NCBI GenBank assembly: GCA_031376265.1
Contig: JANMDK010000020.1
Span: 1-59,931 of the forward strand
DNA: 59,931 bases
Direction: 5' to 3'
Origin: Pseudomonadota bacterium
Lineage (GTDB): Bacteria > Pseudomonadota > Gammaproteobacteria > Burkholderiales > SG8-39
Position numbers and translations under genes: made by a program. This document shows positions 30,663-36,986 of this stretch, piece by piece (within the stretch, counting starts at the first letter, position 1; each line of letters starts with the position of its first letter). The notes under the pieces were generated by a model, which was not told where the DNA came from, made no database searches, and saw nothing but the letters and a program-made list of their open reading frames with translations.

Positions 30663-31364
30663 GTGACCAAACGACTGACGCTCACCCGCGAATCGATCCT
30701 GGATGGAAGCCTGCGCGCCTCCGCCAAGGAACTGCTCGGCCCTGGCGTCGTCTTCATGACCGACGAGGAGCGCACGCGCCAGATCCGCGCAATGCTCGCG
30801 GCCACGCCGCGCCCGGATCGCGTCTGGGTGTTCGGCTTCGGGTCGCTGATCTGGAACCCGGCTTTCCATTTCGTCGAGCGGCGCACCGCACTGGTTCGGG
30901 GCTTCCACCGCCAGTTCTGCTTATGGGCGCGCGCCGGGCGCGGCAGCCCGCAGAGTCCGGGGTTGATGCTGGCGCTGGAGCGCGGCGGCAGCTGCCATGG
31001 CGTCGCCTACCGAATCGCGCCGGAGCAGGTCGAGGCCGAGCTCGACGTGGTCTGGCGGCGAGAGATGCTCACCGGCGCCTACCGCGCGGTCTGGGTCAGC
31101 GTGCAGACGCCGGAGGGCGTCGAGCATGCGATCGCCTTCGCCGCCAACCATGGGCATGAAAGGTACGTGCGCGGCCTGGACAACGACGAGACCGCGCGGT
31201 TGCTGGCCACCGGCAAGGGGCCGCTCGGTACTTGCTGCGACTATCTCTTCGATACCGTCACGCACCTCTCGGACCTCGGCATCCGCGACAAGCGCATGGA
31301 AGCGCTGGTCGAGCGCGTGCGCGCCCACCTCGACTCGGCTACGCCACCAGAACTTTCGGATTGA
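30663..31364 (+). CDS. chaC: ChaC family gamma-glutamylcyclotransferase
   Basis: [30 protein letters not shown]. Confidence 0.85.
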
Positions 31365-32313
31365 CCACGTTGATCGGCTTGCCCGCCGCGTAGGCGACAA
31401 CCTGGTCGAAGATGTCGGAGAACTGCAGCTCGTATTCGTCGCGCGTGACATAACCTATGTGCGGCGTGGCGACGACGTTGTCGAGCTTGAGCAGCGGGTC
31501 GTCGACGTTGCGCAGCGGCTCTTCCTCGAACACATCCACAGCAGCGCGTCCGGGCCGGCCCGCGCGCAGGGCGGTCACCAGCGCACTGGGCTCGATGAGT
31601 CCGGCACGGCTGGTATTCACCAGGATCGACGAAGGCTTCATTAGCGCGAGGTCGGCCCGCGTGACGATGCCGCGCGTCTCCTTGTAGAGCCGCATGTGCA
31701 GCGAGAGCACATCGCACTGCTCGAAGAATTCGCGCTTGCTAGCAGCGGGCGCGTAGCCGTCCGCGGCCGCGCGGGCGCGCGATTCGTCGCGAGCCCAGAC
31801 GATGACCTTCATGCCGAAAGCCTTGCCGTACCCCGCGACCGTGGCGCCGATACGGCCGTAGCCGTAGATGCCGAGCGTCTTGCCGCGCAGGGTGTCGCCG
31901 ACGCCGATCTGCCACTTGCCCGCCTGCAGCGCGGCCATCTGCTGCGGAAGCTGGCGCGCGGCGGCAAGGGTAAGCGCCCACGTAAGCTCCGCAGCCGCAT
32001 AGGAAGGCGTGCCCGCATGCTGGTCGGACGAGACGATGATGCCTTTTGCGGTGCAGGCATCGATGTCGATATGCGGGTAGACGCTGCGCTGGCTGATCAG
32101 CCTAAGCTTTGGCAGGCGCTCGATCAGCGGCGCGCGGATCTGCGTGCGCTCGCGGATCAGCACCAGCACCTCGGTGTCCCTGAGGCGCTCGGCCAGCCGG
32201 CCGACTTCCTGCACATGGTCGTTCCAGATCGTGATGCTGTGCCCGTCGAGCTTCGAAAAGCAGGTGAGCGTGTGGATCGTGTCGAAATAGTCGTCGAGGA
32301 CGGTGATGTTCAC
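31339..32313 (-). CDS. D-2-hydroxyacid dehydrogenase family protein
   Basis: [28 protein letters not shown]. Confidence 0.9.
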
Positions 32314-32444
32314 GGGGATCCCGAGCTTGGTCAGCGTCCCGGGATTGTTTCAAGTTTTGCGCCTTGACTCCAGCGGGGTGAGGCGAGCGCCGGCAGCCTG
32401 GCCAGCGGCGGCAGGGCGAATTTTCCCGAAGCAAAGCTGCCTGA

Positions 32445-32508
32445 AAATGTCAGCAAGTTAACTGGAGAGCCAATGGACACGCGGGGACGGCAAAAAAAAT
32501 GTCAGTAG
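32445..32508 (+). repeat. 64-bp boxed dispersed repeat, copy 1
   Basis: AAATGTCAGCAAGTT-N7-GAGCCAAT-GG-ACACGCGGGG-N6-AAAAAAATGTCAGTAG. Confidence 0.85.
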
Positions 32509-32634
32509 TGCATTTGCGTCAGCGGCAGGCCGGTGACTGGCGGCTGAAAATTCTTCATTGGCGTGCGTGGTCGTCGCGGCTCGCGTAAGCTTCGCCGTTT
32601 CGACCCGTCTCTCAAGCCCGAAGGGAACCCACGA

Positions 32635-33435
32635 ATGCGCATCAACCGCGTGAAACAGCTCTGGCGCGAAGGCAAGACCGCCGTCGGCGGCTTCCTGTCG
32701 ATTCCTCACGTCCTGTCGGCCGAAGCGATGGCCCACACCGGCCTCGACTGGCTTTGCATCGACATGCAGCACGGCTGCATCGACTATTCGGACGCGGTGC
32801 CGATGCTCGCCGCGATCTCGACCACCGCGGTGACGCCGATCGTGCGCGTGCCCTGGAACGAGCCGTCGATGATCATGAAGGTGCTCGACGCTGGCGCCTA
32901 CGGCGTGATCGTGCCGATGGTGAGCAACCGCGAGGAGGCGATGCGCGCGGTCGCCGCCTGCCGCTACCCGCCCAAGGGCAGCCGCAGCAACGGGCCTAAC
33001 CGCGCGATTTTCTACGGCGGGGCCGATTACCAGAAGCACGCCGACAACGAGATGCTCTGCATCGTGATGATCGAGACGGCCGAGGGCATCGAGAAGATGG
33101 ACGAGATCGCCTCCACGCCGGGCATCGACGCGGTGTACATCGGGCCGACCGACCTCGCGCTCGCGCTCGGCCTGCCGCCGGTCATGGACAACGACGATCC
33201 CAGGCACGTGGCCACCGTGAATCGCGTGCTGGAGACCTGCCGCAAGCACAAGGTGGTCGCGGCCATGCACACGATGAGCGCCAAGTACACGCAGCGCTAC
33301 ATCGACCAGGGCTTCCAGATGGTGATGCTCACCTCGGACCGCCTTGGGATATCGAATTGGCTCAAGGCCGAGGTGGGCAAGCTCACCGGCTGGACCCCGC
33401 TGGTGCCGACCGAGGCGCCGCTGCGAAACAGCTGA
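32635..33435 (+). CDS. HpcH/HpaI aldolase family protein
   Basis: IDMQHG, IVRVP, VLDAGAYGVIVPMV, MIET, YIGPTDL. Confidence 0.9.
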   Translation: MRINRVKQLWREGKTAVGGFLSIPHVLSAEAMAHTGLDWLCIDMQHGCIDYSDAVPMLAAISTTAVTPIVRVPWNEPSMIMKVLDAGAYGVIVPMVSNREEAMRAVAACRYPPKGSRSNGPNRAIFYGGADYQKHADNEMLCIVMIETAEGIEKMDEIASTPGIDAVYIGPTDLALALGLPPVMDNDDPRHVATVNRVLETCRKHKVVAAMHTMSAKYTQRYIDQGFQMVMLTSDRLGISNWLKAEVGKLTGWTPLVPTEAPLRNS

Positions 33436-33525
33436 GGTTGGGCGACGTTCTAGCCCGTACAGGCGAAGTCCGCGCGCACGCGCCGGGCTAGACTCGCGCA
33501 TGGCCTTCCGGGGAATTTTCACCAA

Positions 33526-34716
33526 GTGACGTTCGACGCCCGCGCGCTGCTCATCGTCGGCGCCTTCCTGTGCTGGATCCTGGCACTGGCGATCGAATTC
33601 CTCGCGATCCGCACCGACGCGCGGCGCTGGCTTCCCGGGGCGTATACCGCCGGCCTCCTGATCCACGGCCTCGGCCTGATCCTCATCTCGCAGCGCGGCC
33701 TCATCGGCGACCTCTGGAGCATCCTGCTCGCCAACGTGCTGCTGCTGCTGGCGCCGCTCTTTTACTTCTCGGCCCTGCAGGCGGTACGCGGCCTCAAGCC
33801 CGACTACCGGGTGCTTGCGGCGATGCCGGTGAGCATGGCGGTCCTGCTGCCGGTGGTCGGCTTCTCGCAGCAGGCGTTCACTTCGCGCGTGATGATTTTT
33901 ACCTGCGCCGCGCTCTTCGCTTTCGGGCTGATCTGCTGGGCTGCCTTCCGCATCGCCCGCGCCGGCAAGTCCGGCGGCTGGATGATCCTCGGCGCCATCG
34001 GCACGCTGGCCGTGATCACCCTCACGCGTGCAATGTCGGTGGCTGCCGGGCAAGTGTCCGGCGTGTTCGACTCGCAGGGCGTGCAGCTGGCGTTCTACCT
34101 CGTGAATGACGCGTGCATCGCGCTTGCGGCGTTCGGGTACATGGACATCATCCGCGCGCGGCGCCAGCCCCAGCTCGACCGGCCGTCCGAAATGGCGCCG
34201 GACGCGCAAACCGGCCTCTACTCGCGCGCGGCCTTCCTGCGCAGCGGCATGGAGGAGCTCAACCGCGCGCGCCGCAAGGATTACGCGATCACGCTGATGC
34301 TGATCCAGGTCGACCGCATCGACGCCACCACGGCGGCCAAGGGCGCCGGGTTCGTCGAGCTGGCGCTCAAGCGGGTCGCTACCTCGATCCTGCGCGACAT
34401 CCGCATGTACGACGTCGCGGGGCGCCTGTCCGAGAGCGTGATGGGGGTGATCATGCCGGAGCTGGCCCTGGCCGATGCCGTGGACGTTGCCGAGCGCATC
34501 CGCTCGGCCATCGAGGAGGACCCCGCCATCCGCAACGGAACGTACGGCGTGACCGTCAGTGCCGGCGTCTGCGAGGTGGAGAAGATCCACCAGGAGCTGG
34601 GCGAAGTCATGGCCGTCGCCCACCAGTGCCTCGAGCGCGCCCGCGCGCTGGGCGGCAACCGGGTGGTGACCCCCGACCGGTCCCTGTCAAAGAGCTTCGT
34701 CGCGGACACGATCTAG
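33526..34716 (+). CDS. Membrane protein with degenerate GGDEF domain
   Basis: About 7 TM segments, DAQTGLYSR, AERIR, TVSAG, GGNRV; active site reads SESVM. Confidence 0.8.
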   Translation: MTFDARALLIVGAFLCWILALAIEFLAIRTDARRWLPGAYTAGLLIHGLGLILISQRGLIGDLWSILLANVLLLLAPLFYFSALQAVRGLKPDYRVLAAMPVSMAVLLPVVGFSQQAFTSRVMIFTCAALFAFGLICWAAFRIARAGKSGGWMILGAIGTLAVITLTRAMSVAAGQVSGVFDSQGVQLAFYLVNDACIALAAFGYMDIIRARRQPQLDRPSEMAPDAQTGLYSRAAFLRSGMEELNRARRKDYAITLMLIQVDRIDATTAAKGAGFVELALKRVATSILRDIRMYDVAGRLSESVMGVIMPELALADAVDVAERIRSAIEEDPAIRNGTYGVTVSAGVCEVEKIHQELGEVMAVAHQCLERARALGGNRVVTPDRSLSKSFVADTI

Positions 34717-34861
34717 CCCCTGCGTGTCATCCGTTTTCCGGGTTTGTACGTTATTCGCCTACATGCGGTCGCGCACCTGTCGTACAGACGGCGGGGCCTT
34801 CAGCACGGATAGTCGGCGTTCATAGGGAACGTGTTTGCTGGGCACTTAAGCGGGGTGTGTC

Positions 34862-35098
34862 ATGGGCGAGCAACAAGGCACGAATGACCTGTTCGGCGAG
34901 CGGCCGGTGCGGCTGCCGGGGGGCATGAATGCAAGCCAGATCCGGCTGGCTTCCGAGCCGGCGGAATTGCGGGCCGCCAAGGCCCTCGCGGCGAAGATGC
35001 GCACCAGGCGCAGCCGTCGCGAGAAGAAAGAGGTCGCGCACCTCATCTGCCTCAACCTCATCACGATGCTCAAGCACGGCGGCGGCGCCCGGCGGTAG
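34862..35098 (+). CDS. Small basic hypothetical protein
   Basis: 78-aa ORF preceded by a G-rich RBS-like stretch and a candidate promoter (CGTACAGAC-N18-GATAGT). Confidence 0.45.
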   Translation: MGEQQGTNDLFGERPVRLPGGMNASQIRLASEPAELRAAKALAAKMRTRRSRREKKEVAHLICLNLITMLKHGGGARR

Positions 35099-35241
35099 GC
35101 GCCGCGGAGCGCTGCGCCTTAGTCGCGGAGCTTGCACTTCTCCTGCATCGCCGGGCTCACCAGGTCGAGTTCATCGCAGGATATTTAAAGAAGCATCCCG
35201 GCGAACTCGCGAGTGTCGGCATGGTCGGGATTGGAAGTTGG

Positions 35242-35305
35242 AAATGTCAGTAAGTTCCCCGCTGAGCCAATAAACACGCGGGGTTTGAGAAAAAAATGTC
35301 AGTAG
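35242..35305 (+). repeat. 64-bp boxed dispersed repeat, copy 2
   Basis: AAATGTCAGTAAGTT-N7-GAGCCAAT-AA-ACACGCGGGG-N6-AAAAAAATGTCAGTAG. Confidence 0.85.
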
Positions 35306-36649
35306 CTAACGCCGCCGGGCCAGCGCCAGCGGGATGAGGCCAAGGCAGATCCCGCCAACGCCGATCGTCACCGTCGGCGCGTCCATGCCGCGCACCGCCA
35401 GCGCCGCAGCCCACCATAACGCAAGGGCGCTCGCCAACGGCCAGAGGACTGCGAACGCCATGAGCCCCGCGGAGCCCAGCGCCTCGCGGCGAAAATGCCA
35501 AGCGCACGCCATTGCGGTGAGGCCGTAATAGAACGCGATCTCCAGGCCGATCGCATTCACCGAGGCCTTGAGCAACGCGTCGATGCCGGGCAGCGCGAGG
35601 GAGGCCGCAAGCAGTGCGAGGCCAAGCCAGGTATTCAGCCAAGTCGCCGCGTGTGGCGTCTGCCAGCGCGGATGCACCGCCGCCCAGCGCGGCGGCAGGT
35701 CGCCCGCCCGGGACGCGGCGAACAGCGTTCGCGCAAACTGCAGCAGGGACACCTGCAGCGAGCCCAGGCTGCTGAGCATTACGGCCAGCACCGCGAGGTA
35801 GCTCCACGGGCGCGGCACCACTTTTTCGGCGAGCGCGAAGAGCACGTTCGCGCCGGAGGCTTCGATGCCCCCGGTTCCCAGTACAGAAAGCGTCACGACG
35901 GCGAACGCAACGAAGGCGAGGGCGACCACCAGCATCGCCATCACCGCCGCGACGCCGGGCGTGCGCCGCGATTCGCTCGTTTCCTCGCTGGCATTCAGCG
36001 TGACGTCCCAGCCCCAGAAGAAGAACACCGCGATCACCGCGCCGGCCGCGAACTGCTCCGCAGAAAAGGCCAACGGCGAGAAAGAGGTGTCCGAAACGAA
36101 GGCAGCCACCTGCCGACCGTTTTTCACGAGCGCTACGACCGCCAATCCCGCGAGCACCGCAATCTCGATCCCGGTTATCCATGCCTGCAGCGTTCCGGTG
36201 AGCCGCATGCCGCGCACTTCCACCAGCGTGATCGCCACGATCCAGCACGCAGCCACGCCGGTCACCAGCAGCTGGTCGCCGGCCAACTCCGGCGCGAGCA
36301 GCAACAGCGTCGCGGTGGCCGCTGGAATCGTCGCCGAGACCGTGAAGAGCACCGAAGTGACGAGCACCACCCAGCCGCAGAGAAAGCCCAAGTCGCGATG
36401 CAGCACCCGCCCGACCCACGCGTACGAGGCGCCGGCATCCGGATGCACGCGGTTGAGGTTCACGAACGCGCAGGTGATTCCGGCCATCACTAATCCGCAA
36501 TACAGCAGGATCGCCGGCGCCAATACGCCCGTGGCCGCCACCAGCGCGGCAGTCGAAACGGCGATGGTGTAGGAGGGCGCCGTCCCGGCGATGCCGATGG
36601 CGACGACGTGGACCAGCTTCAGCGCATCGCCGCGCAGCATCGGATTCAT
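35306..36649 (-). CDS. APC family permease
   Basis: GTAPSY, PDAGASYAW, FWGWD...SEE, ARTLFA...G.LP, QTPH. Confidence 0.88.
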   Translation of the reverse strand: MNPMLRGDALKLVHVVAIGIAGTAPSYTIAVSTAALVAATGVLAPAILLYCGLVMAGITCAFVNLNRVHPDAGASYAWVGRVLHRDLGFLCGWVVLVTSVLFTVSATIPAATATLLLLAPELAGDQLLVTGVAACWIVAITLVEVRGMRLTGTLQAWITGIEIAVLAGLAVVALVKNGRQVAAFVSDTSFSPLAFSAEQFAAGAVIAVFFFWGWDVTLNASEETSESRRTPGVAAVMAMLVVALAFVAFAVVTLSVLGTGGIEASGANVLFALAEKVVPRPWSYLAVLAVMLSSLGSLQVSLLQFARTLFAASRAGDLPPRWAAVHPRWQTPHAATWLNTWLGLALLAASLALPGIDALLKASVNAIGLEIAFYYGLTAMACAWHFRREALGSAGLMAFAVLWPLASALALWWAAALAVRGMDAPTVTIGVGGICLGLIPLALARRR

Positions 36650-36740: not shown

Positions 36741-36986
36741 ATGGCGAAGCCTTCCATCACCGAGGTGAGCGTGAGCGAATTGCGCCAGAATCTTCCGGCC
36801 TACCTTGCGCAAGTCGGCAAGGGACGGGAGATCGAGGTGACGTCCCACGGCAGGATCATTGCACGCATCGTTGCTGGCGGAAATCCCGGGCAGGAGGCGC
36901 GCGAGCGCCTCCTGGCGGCTCGGGCGCGCTGCAAAGTCGGTGATGTCCTGAGTCCTTCCGGAGACCGCTGGGACGCAGAGGATTGA
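36741..36986 (+). CDS. Phd/YefM family antitoxin
   Basis: VSVSELRQNLPAYL...GREIEVTSHGRIIARI. Confidence 0.88.
   Translation: MAKPSITEVSVSELRQNLPAYLAQVGKGREIEVTSHGRIIARIVAGGNPGQEARERLLAARARCKVGDVLSPSGDRWDAED

Follow-up and report, generated by a model that had tools for sequence, protein, structure and literature searches.

The 59,931-nt stretch of DNA analysed here (the window) belongs to a 4.81-Mb genome (G000; 400 contigs, 65% G+C) of the genus SG8-39 in the Burkholderiales. Two copies of a short element lie in it in direct orientation, with an aldolase gene, a gene for a GGDEF-domain membrane protein and a small open reading frame (ORF) between them. A preliminary description made from the sequence took this pair for boxed direct repeats flanking a cassette of the three genes, and proposed a protein-bound site such as a recombination or cassette site. 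Our analysis indicates that the two repeats are probably independent members of a genus-specific family of short dispersed intergenic elements, in which we distinguish types T1, T2 and T3. The locus is laid out as follows.

31339..32313, minus strand: D-isomer 2-hydroxyacid dehydrogenase gene (PF02826, 1.5e-51; PF00389), divergent from the aldolase gene
32445..32508, plus strand: T1 copy 1 (nhmmer profile E 6.3e-12; sequence model R2 E 3.9e-13)
32635..33435, plus strand: HpcH/HpaI aldolase gene (PF03328, 5e-37)
33526..34716, plus strand: gene for a membrane protein with a GGDEF domain (PF00990, 1.3e-19)
34862..35098, plus strand: 78-aa ORF without a Pfam family, adjoining the GGDEF gene in relatives too
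35242..35305, plus strand: T1 copy 2 (nhmmer profile E 1.6e-13; sequence model R2 E 1.6e-14)
35306..36649, minus strand: amino-acid permease gene (AA_permease, Pfam match)
36741-36986, plus strand: Phd/YefM-type antitoxin gene, directly after the permease

A repeat search returned the pair as a direct repeat of 67 nt (32442-32508 and 35239-35305; no gaps, 79% identical, 2797 nt from start to start), in agreement with the gap-free alignment first described for 32445-32508 and 35242-35305. The 64-nt copies alternate blocks and spacers of 15, 7, 8, 2, 10, 6 and 16 nt. A single C/T difference separates the two 15-nt blocks, and the blocks of 8, 10 and 16 nt are all identical; the spacers agree at 2 of 7, 0 of 2 and 1 of 6 positions. 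The original reading of four near-identical blocks with three free spacers is thus borne out. So is the internal repeat that it noted 52 nt apart in each copy: AAATGTCAGYA occurs at four sites in the window (32445, 32497, 35242 and 35294), all on the plus strand and 52 nt apart within each copy, with 0.49 expected by shuffling and four reached in 0 of 100 shuffles. Copy 1 carries AAATGTCAGCA at 32445-32455 (box 1) and AAATGTCAGTA at 32497-32507 (box 2), followed by G; the boxes of copy 2 occupy 35242-35252 and 35294-35304. The central word GAGCCAATNNACACGCGGGG is confined to the two copies within the window (0.14 expected; two reached in 1 of 100 shuffles).

Copy 1 sits in the divergent intergenic region between the dehydrogenase and aldolase genes. 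Copy 2 has convergent genes on both sides, its 3' end one base from the permease stop codon (CTA, that is TAG), as the preliminary description had placed it; the gene names used there (aldolase, GGDEF, small ORF, permease) also hold up against Pfam matches. Between the small ORF and the permease, G008 and G017, two other genomes of the genus, have a small minus-strand gene, of which the window retains merely a shortened, apparently decayed remnant at about 35100-35200.

A dispersed family of modular elements

The preliminary description had suggested a genome-wide search for further copies and had counted their absence against its reading; dozens turned up. The exact two-box T1 pattern matched 21 times in the window's genome, the reversed control pattern not at all, and 36 copies were found when up to one mismatch was allowed in each box. 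An nhmmer profile made from them gave 59 matches at E ≤ 1e-3 and 77 at E < 1. Elements of all types number 153 in this genome: 39 T1, 19 T2, 68 T3, 26 T3 cores and one unassigned. Copies in such numbers point to a dispersed repeat and not to a paired site.

Every T1 copy measures 63 or 64 nt and is built in the same order: AAATGTCAGYA-AGTT, about 40 nt of variable interior, an A-rich run, and AAATGTCAGTA-G, with box-to-box spacing fixed at 52-53 nt. T1 carries AATGTCAGYA at both ends and T2 carries AATGGCAGYA at both ends. In an alignment of 22 copies the T/G column agrees between box 1 and box 2 throughout (T and T in 14/14 T1 rows, G and G in 8/8 T2 rows); invariant columns concentrate in the boxes, the interior is variable, and mean column identity is 73%. 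Pairwise identity of random T1 copies averages 73.1% (standard deviation 5.8%). The blocks GAGCCAAT and ACACGCGGGG mark one T1 subfamily with about a dozen further copies, for example on contigs C97, C69 and C148, and they are identical in the two window copies because both belong to that subfamily. The T1 copy on contig C97 is followed, at a distance of about 310 nt, by a tRNA gene (1875-1947 of L005).

T3, a larger type that is absent from the window, was reached through weak profile matches. Its 5' end is an 18-bp palindrome, TGTAYCGGTACCGRTACA, also seen as (GTACCG)2GTAC. The core that it has in common with T1 and T2 consists of CCCGGAGAGCC and a loop, to which T3 adds a complementary arm, GGCTCTCCG; its 3' module reads GAAWGT-N4-GAAWT. 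Examples of the 68 full copies are C1:2827-2910 and C166:770-853, and the 26 further cores lack the palindrome. The modules are interchangeable, with three kinds of 5' end, one common core and two kinds of 3' end.

Within the genus, 7 of 18 genomes, the window's own among them, contain the exact T1 pattern; a search of 23 genomes belonging to other genera in the family and order gave no match. Scored with model R2, T1/T2 elements are found in 15 of the 18 at 3 to at least 115 copies, with many in G008, G012, G017 and G000, where the high counts are lower bounds, 150 candidates per genome having been scored; at E ≤ 1e-4 the model finds none in G011, G004 and G005. The T3 palindrome, allowing one mismatch, is likewise present in 15 of 18, and outside the genus at one site among 43 genomes. 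A search with whole elements gave no copy in plasmids or viral contigs. In a broad scan of genome contigs, 18 of 103 loci among the matches listed are true copies by profile, almost all of 58-68% G+C, and the rest of the matches listed are mostly chance occurrences in AT-rich genomes. Rfam returned no match at gathering score in the window and none on the elements at E ≤ 1 to 5; no description of the family turned up in literature searches, and the full-text matches listed for three of its motifs are unrelated (for example, primer lists). The elements constitute a repeat superfamily, about 150 copies strong, that is confined to one uncultured genus of Burkholderiales-like bacteria.

Insertion, placement and the window pair

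The elements are discrete insertions that include both boxes. At the permease locus, the 64-nt element of G008 separates sequences that are adjacent in G017, where no box is present. The second empty site, downstream of a conserved gene on contig C162, is that of G011: its convergent stop codons are nine bases apart, again without a box. Since neither empty site holds a box, the element itself includes both. These two sites show no target duplication, although one of 2-4 nt could escape detection at about 80% identity. Duplication of an 11-mer target as the origin of the two boxes was ruled out by the boxless empty sites, by the scarcity of solo boxes (4 of 73 AATGTCAGYA words lie outside elements) and by a difference between the boxes at the Y position (CAGCA in 19/36 copies of box 1 vs 2/36 of box 2).

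Elements are retained at a locus across speciation, though species differ in the type that occupies it. At the C162 locus, 10 of 11 species carry an element, its 5' end always toward the conserved gene: T1 in G000 and G013, T2 in G012, G017, G008, G010, G006 and G015, and T3 in G002 and G007. The spacer that precedes the element is alike within the subgroups G017/G008/G010 and G006/G015, which indicates that the element was inherited there and that its boxes were kept while the interior drifted. The differing types reflect one of three processes: one element replaced another, copies converted each other, or a favoured spot received insertions repeatedly.

The elements occupy intergenic DNA; most of them directly follow a stop codon, and they point either way relative to the gene. 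With genes called by a crude codon-usage caller that covers 81% of the genome, the 59 T1/T2 matches divide into 26 convergent, 21 tandem and 5 divergent sites, 3 at contig ends and 4 called inside a gene; convergent sites thus make up 26 of the 52 matches with called genes on both sides. The nearest stop codon is mostly 0-15 nt away and often overlaps the first A's of the element. Where a stop codon lies within 60 nt, T1/T2 elements turn their 5' end to it in 26 cases and their 3' end in 25; for T3, whose placement is the same, the counts are 37 and 46. In about ten cases the T3 palindrome lies 20-60 nt upstream of a start codon. A link to a 44-member family of substrate-binding proteins did not emerge, as merely 4 element ends adjoin a member. 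These 44 paralogous ABC-type proteins are encoded on contigs C53, C382, C314 and C167, partly in tandem arrays, in regions whose gene content varies between species of the genus.

Against this background, the two window repeats are ordinary family members, not a matched pair of cassette ends. One pair of T1 copies within 3 kb is what chance provides (1 observed against a simulated mean of 0.81 for 39 copies placed at random on the contigs; P = 0.56), and the 79.4% identity of the window copies falls at the 83rd percentile of random T1 pairs. The dehydrogenase gene, aldolase gene, GGDEF region and permease gene are collinear in G017, G008 and G014, with aldolase orthologues of relatives in the same place at 81-90% DNA identity. 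The spacer between the dehydrogenase and aldolase genes measures 110-150 nt without an element in those three genomes, compared with 320 nt with copy 1 in the window. The presence and absence of a cassette, which the preliminary description had proposed to look for in relatives, is therefore not what they display: the block is kept in all three without copy 1. G008 has a T1 counterpart of copy 2 in the same place and orientation and lacks a counterpart of copy 1, and G017 has neither; with copy 2 alone in one genome and none in the other, copies 1 and 2 did not arrive at the same time. G012 lacks both the permease gene and the element, and its small ORF directly precedes the orthologous Phd-type antitoxin gene.

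Metagenome contigs from four DNA runs span both copies. One from a related strain, about 95% identical, carries copy 1, and variants of the A-run inside copy 2 exist among these contigs. Among the contig joints listed for the four runs, none skips 2797 nt. One contig of run X1 joins position 32536 to 35580 with five other letters between; the joint is off the repeat register, and the contig may come from another organism. A cassette test on two other element pairs, on C53 and C382, is blurred by many paralogous matches; the borders that can be read do not lie at elements. Of the earlier proposal of a protein-bound site or cassette, then, the pattern of boxes and spacers is real, is family-wide across the 22 aligned copies and agrees with a recognition site, but the two window copies do not mark the limits of a cassette, and a false lead is spared.

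Co-orientation of neighbouring elements

Neighbouring elements within 10 kb of each other share one orientation in 43 of 48 pairs over G000, G014 and G017, an effect that is gone beyond about 20-40 kb. The direct arrangement in the window is thus one instance of a general rule, and here alone the preliminary impression of a meaningful direct pair may yet prove fruitful. Co-oriented pairs by distance are as follows.

G000, all types: below 10 kb 22/25; 10-20 kb 4/6; 20-40 kb 0/1; 40-80 kb 1/1; above 80 kb none
G014, T3: below 10 kb 6/7; 10-20 kb 6/7; 20-40 kb 7/10; 40-80 kb 9/22; above 80 kb 3/10
G017, T1/T2: below 10 kb 15/16; 10-20 kb 7/10; 20-40 kb 6/16; 40-80 kb 8/15; above 80 kb 4/8

Adjacent pairs within 6 kb in G000, which lie 0.6-5.5 kb apart, are direct in 15 of 16 cases.

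Several causes were considered and rejected. Replication polarity fails: 78 of 153 elements of G000 lie on the G-rich strand (aggregate skew -0.00009 over 114 contigs). On contig C12 of G014 the skew keeps its positive sign between 0 and 980 kb, yet the T3 strands change near 411-549 kb, and six elements around dnaA, on another contig, reveal no clear strand switch. Gene strand is not the cause either, given the balance of element ends that face stop codons. Clustering by local hopping is not seen (9 pairs within 3 kb against 12.4 simulated), and recent local copying is unlikely, since neighbours are not clearly more alike, with 2 of 12 pairs above the 98th percentile.

A recombinase that penalises closely spaced inverted pairs would be consistent with co-orientation. 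So would the integration of circles at existing elements, although synteny speaks against this for the window pair. On a related and, in our estimate, quite unlikely reading, the elements could be oriented protein-binding landmarks in which paired direct 11-bp boxes, five helical turns apart and with their specificity base switched jointly, are read by a putative invertase-like recombinase or structuring protein. Were this true, inverted neighbours would be eliminated where they lie close together, or close copies would be read as one unit, and the 43 of 48 pairs would be explained. A doubled direct end box with a co-varying base, combined with local co-orientation of neighbours, should be of interest to those who study bacterial repeats.

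Comparison with known repeats and weighing of explanations

The window's genome also holds three classical REP-RAYT systems, with Y1/RAYT-type transposase genes at C81:587-1375, C220 (L147:1171-1866) and C55 (L148:1129-1866). Each gene has inverted copies of its own REP on its flanks (words GGGGCCAGGCTCAAACCTGAC, GGGGTCAGAGTCGATTTA and GGGACAGACCACGTTT, each present about 70-120 times in the genome). No RAYT gene is flanked by T1-T3, and one T2 copy adjoins the 3' end of one of them. REP/REPIN-RAYT systems are defined by a short, imperfectly palindromic unit (a stem-loop), inverted doublets (REPINs) and a single-copy RAYT gene flanked by the family's own repeats (PMC3337134, PMC3116915). Our family resembles them in being short, high-copy, extragenic, genus-restricted, long-lived, and most frequent at the 3' ends of genes and in convergent intergenic regions. 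It differs in that its unit is not a palindromic stem-loop, its terminal boxes are direct and not inverted, and its elements are single and not inverted doublets. With a non-palindromic unit, no inverted doublets and no flanked RAYT gene, it lacks the defining features of REP-RAYT systems, and it coexists with them without belonging to them.

Mosaic intergenic repeats comprise BIME in enterobacteria, RIME in rhizobia and NIME in Neisseria. By their modular make-up these appear closest in style to our family, which is likewise modular and places different types at the same locus in different species; we know of no doubled 11-nt direct box with a shared specificity base in any of them. Miniature inverted-repeat transposable elements (MITEs) are similarly small, non-coding, dispersed and inserted as discrete units, but our elements have no terminal inverted repeats, their ends being the same 11-mer in direct orientation, and are for that reason not MITEs. 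No parent insertion sequence with the same ends turned up, the whole-element search having covered plasmids and viral contigs only. The attC sites of integrons end in inverted core sites, RYYYAAC ... GTTRRRY. Conserved ends, a variable middle, a position behind the stop codon and co-oriented neighbours recall them, whereas the ends of our elements are direct, the elements are scattered and not arrayed, and relatives that lack the sites keep the enclosed genes in synteny; lacking inverted core sites, the family is not attC. Nor do the elements resemble CRISPR mini-arrays, whose repeats exceed 20 nt, as the boxes are 11 nt long and occur at most twice per element.

Taken together, the family is most likely a genus-specific, non-autonomous mosaic repeat with the boxes as predicted protein recognition sites. 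Its elements would be DNA of the REP/BIME kind, non-autonomous and either still mobile or mobile in the past, and the near-invariant boxes would serve as recognition sites for one putative trans-acting DNA-binding protein. This protein may be an enzyme that moves or converts the elements or a host protein that came to use them, and it could exist in T- and G-specific forms or as one tolerant form. Should a protein indeed read the boxes, it could be sought with the family's many natural copies.

Some observations weigh against this account. The family is linked to no transposase or recombinase, nor to any other protein, and the three Y1 (RAYT-type) genes each have their own, different inverted REPs. 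Near-identical copies are absent, random T1 pairs being 73% alike, so no recent movement is demonstrated. The species in which filled and empty sites were compared are about 80% identical, too distant for exact borders and small duplications to be read, and the conservation of the boxes stems in part from the way copies were found, as the profile leans on them. Co-orientation is far stronger than an indifferent selfish repeat predicts, and a mobile mosaic repeat leaves it unaccounted for.

On one rival explanation, which we consider unlikely, the elements are domesticated oriented sites of a protein that structures the chromosome or controls its topology, two sites five turns apart being bound by one oligomer and polarity being functional. 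The constant box spacing of 52-53 nt agrees with this, as do the retention of presence and orientation in 10 of 11 species at the C162 locus and the decay of co-orientation past about 20 kb. From what is known of BIME and gyrase, positive supercoils would collect between convergent genes, and half of the flanked T1/T2 matches (26/52) lie there. However, no such protein is known, and the function would be dispensable, since G011, G004 and G005 have no elements at E ≤ 1e-4; copy number ranges between species as it does for selfish repeats, from 3 to at least 115, and polarity does not follow GC skew. Another explanation, decidedly improbable, takes the elements for sites of a site-specific recombinase, with the segments between direct copies moving in and out as cassettes by integration and excision. 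A circle that integrated at an existing site would leave two direct copies behind, in keeping with the co-orientation of pairs below 10 kb (22/25, 6/7 and 15/16); the specificity position changes in both boxes jointly, and gene content differs between species around the pairs on C53 and C382. Yet G017, G008 and G014 keep the window block in synteny although all three lack copy 1 and G017 lacks copy 2 as well; empty sites lack a box; close pairs are not in excess (the 9 within 3 kb against 12.4 simulated); and the ends are direct, unlike the inverted ends of attC. Moreover, a 2.3-kb stretch of C382 that is missing from one G008 contig, and present on another, has its second T2 copy inside and not at its borders.

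A role in RNA, as a stabiliser in the 3' untranslated region, a processing signal or a small RNA, with the boxes as RNA-protein sites and the interior as a hairpin, seems improbable to us. Elements do stand directly behind stop codons, some relatives' copies contain perfect 8-9-bp interior stems of unrelated sequence, and two helices of T3 pair in 79.5% of cells compared with 30-45% for slid controls. But they occur in both orientations to the preceding gene (26 vs 25), the T1/T2 interior folds no better than shuffles (mean -11.7 vs -10.2 kcal/mol over 58 copies), RNAalifold gives no consensus structure for 40 T3 copies, and the T3 helices exhibit no covariation beyond column shuffles. Wobble pairs favour neither strand, Rfam has no match, and the sequence after the hairpin is A-rich and not U-rich. 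A hairpin is often present but not required. With the evidence for a selected single-strand structure this weak, we favour a reading at the level of double-stranded DNA, with the boxes as protein sites.

Paired transcription factor operators for the neighbouring genes have, in our judgement, next to no probability. Copy 1 does lie in a divergent promoter region and the T3 palindrome does precede some ten start codons at 20-60 nt, but 5 of 59 T1/T2 copies lie between divergent genes and most adjoin stops or lie between convergent genes; the neighbouring genes are functionally unrelated, with 4 element ends adjoining the one large paralogue family checked. A sigma-54 or sigma-70 promoter, considered by eye only, was also set aside, the GG-to-GC spacing of T2 being one base short of the sigma-54 consensus.

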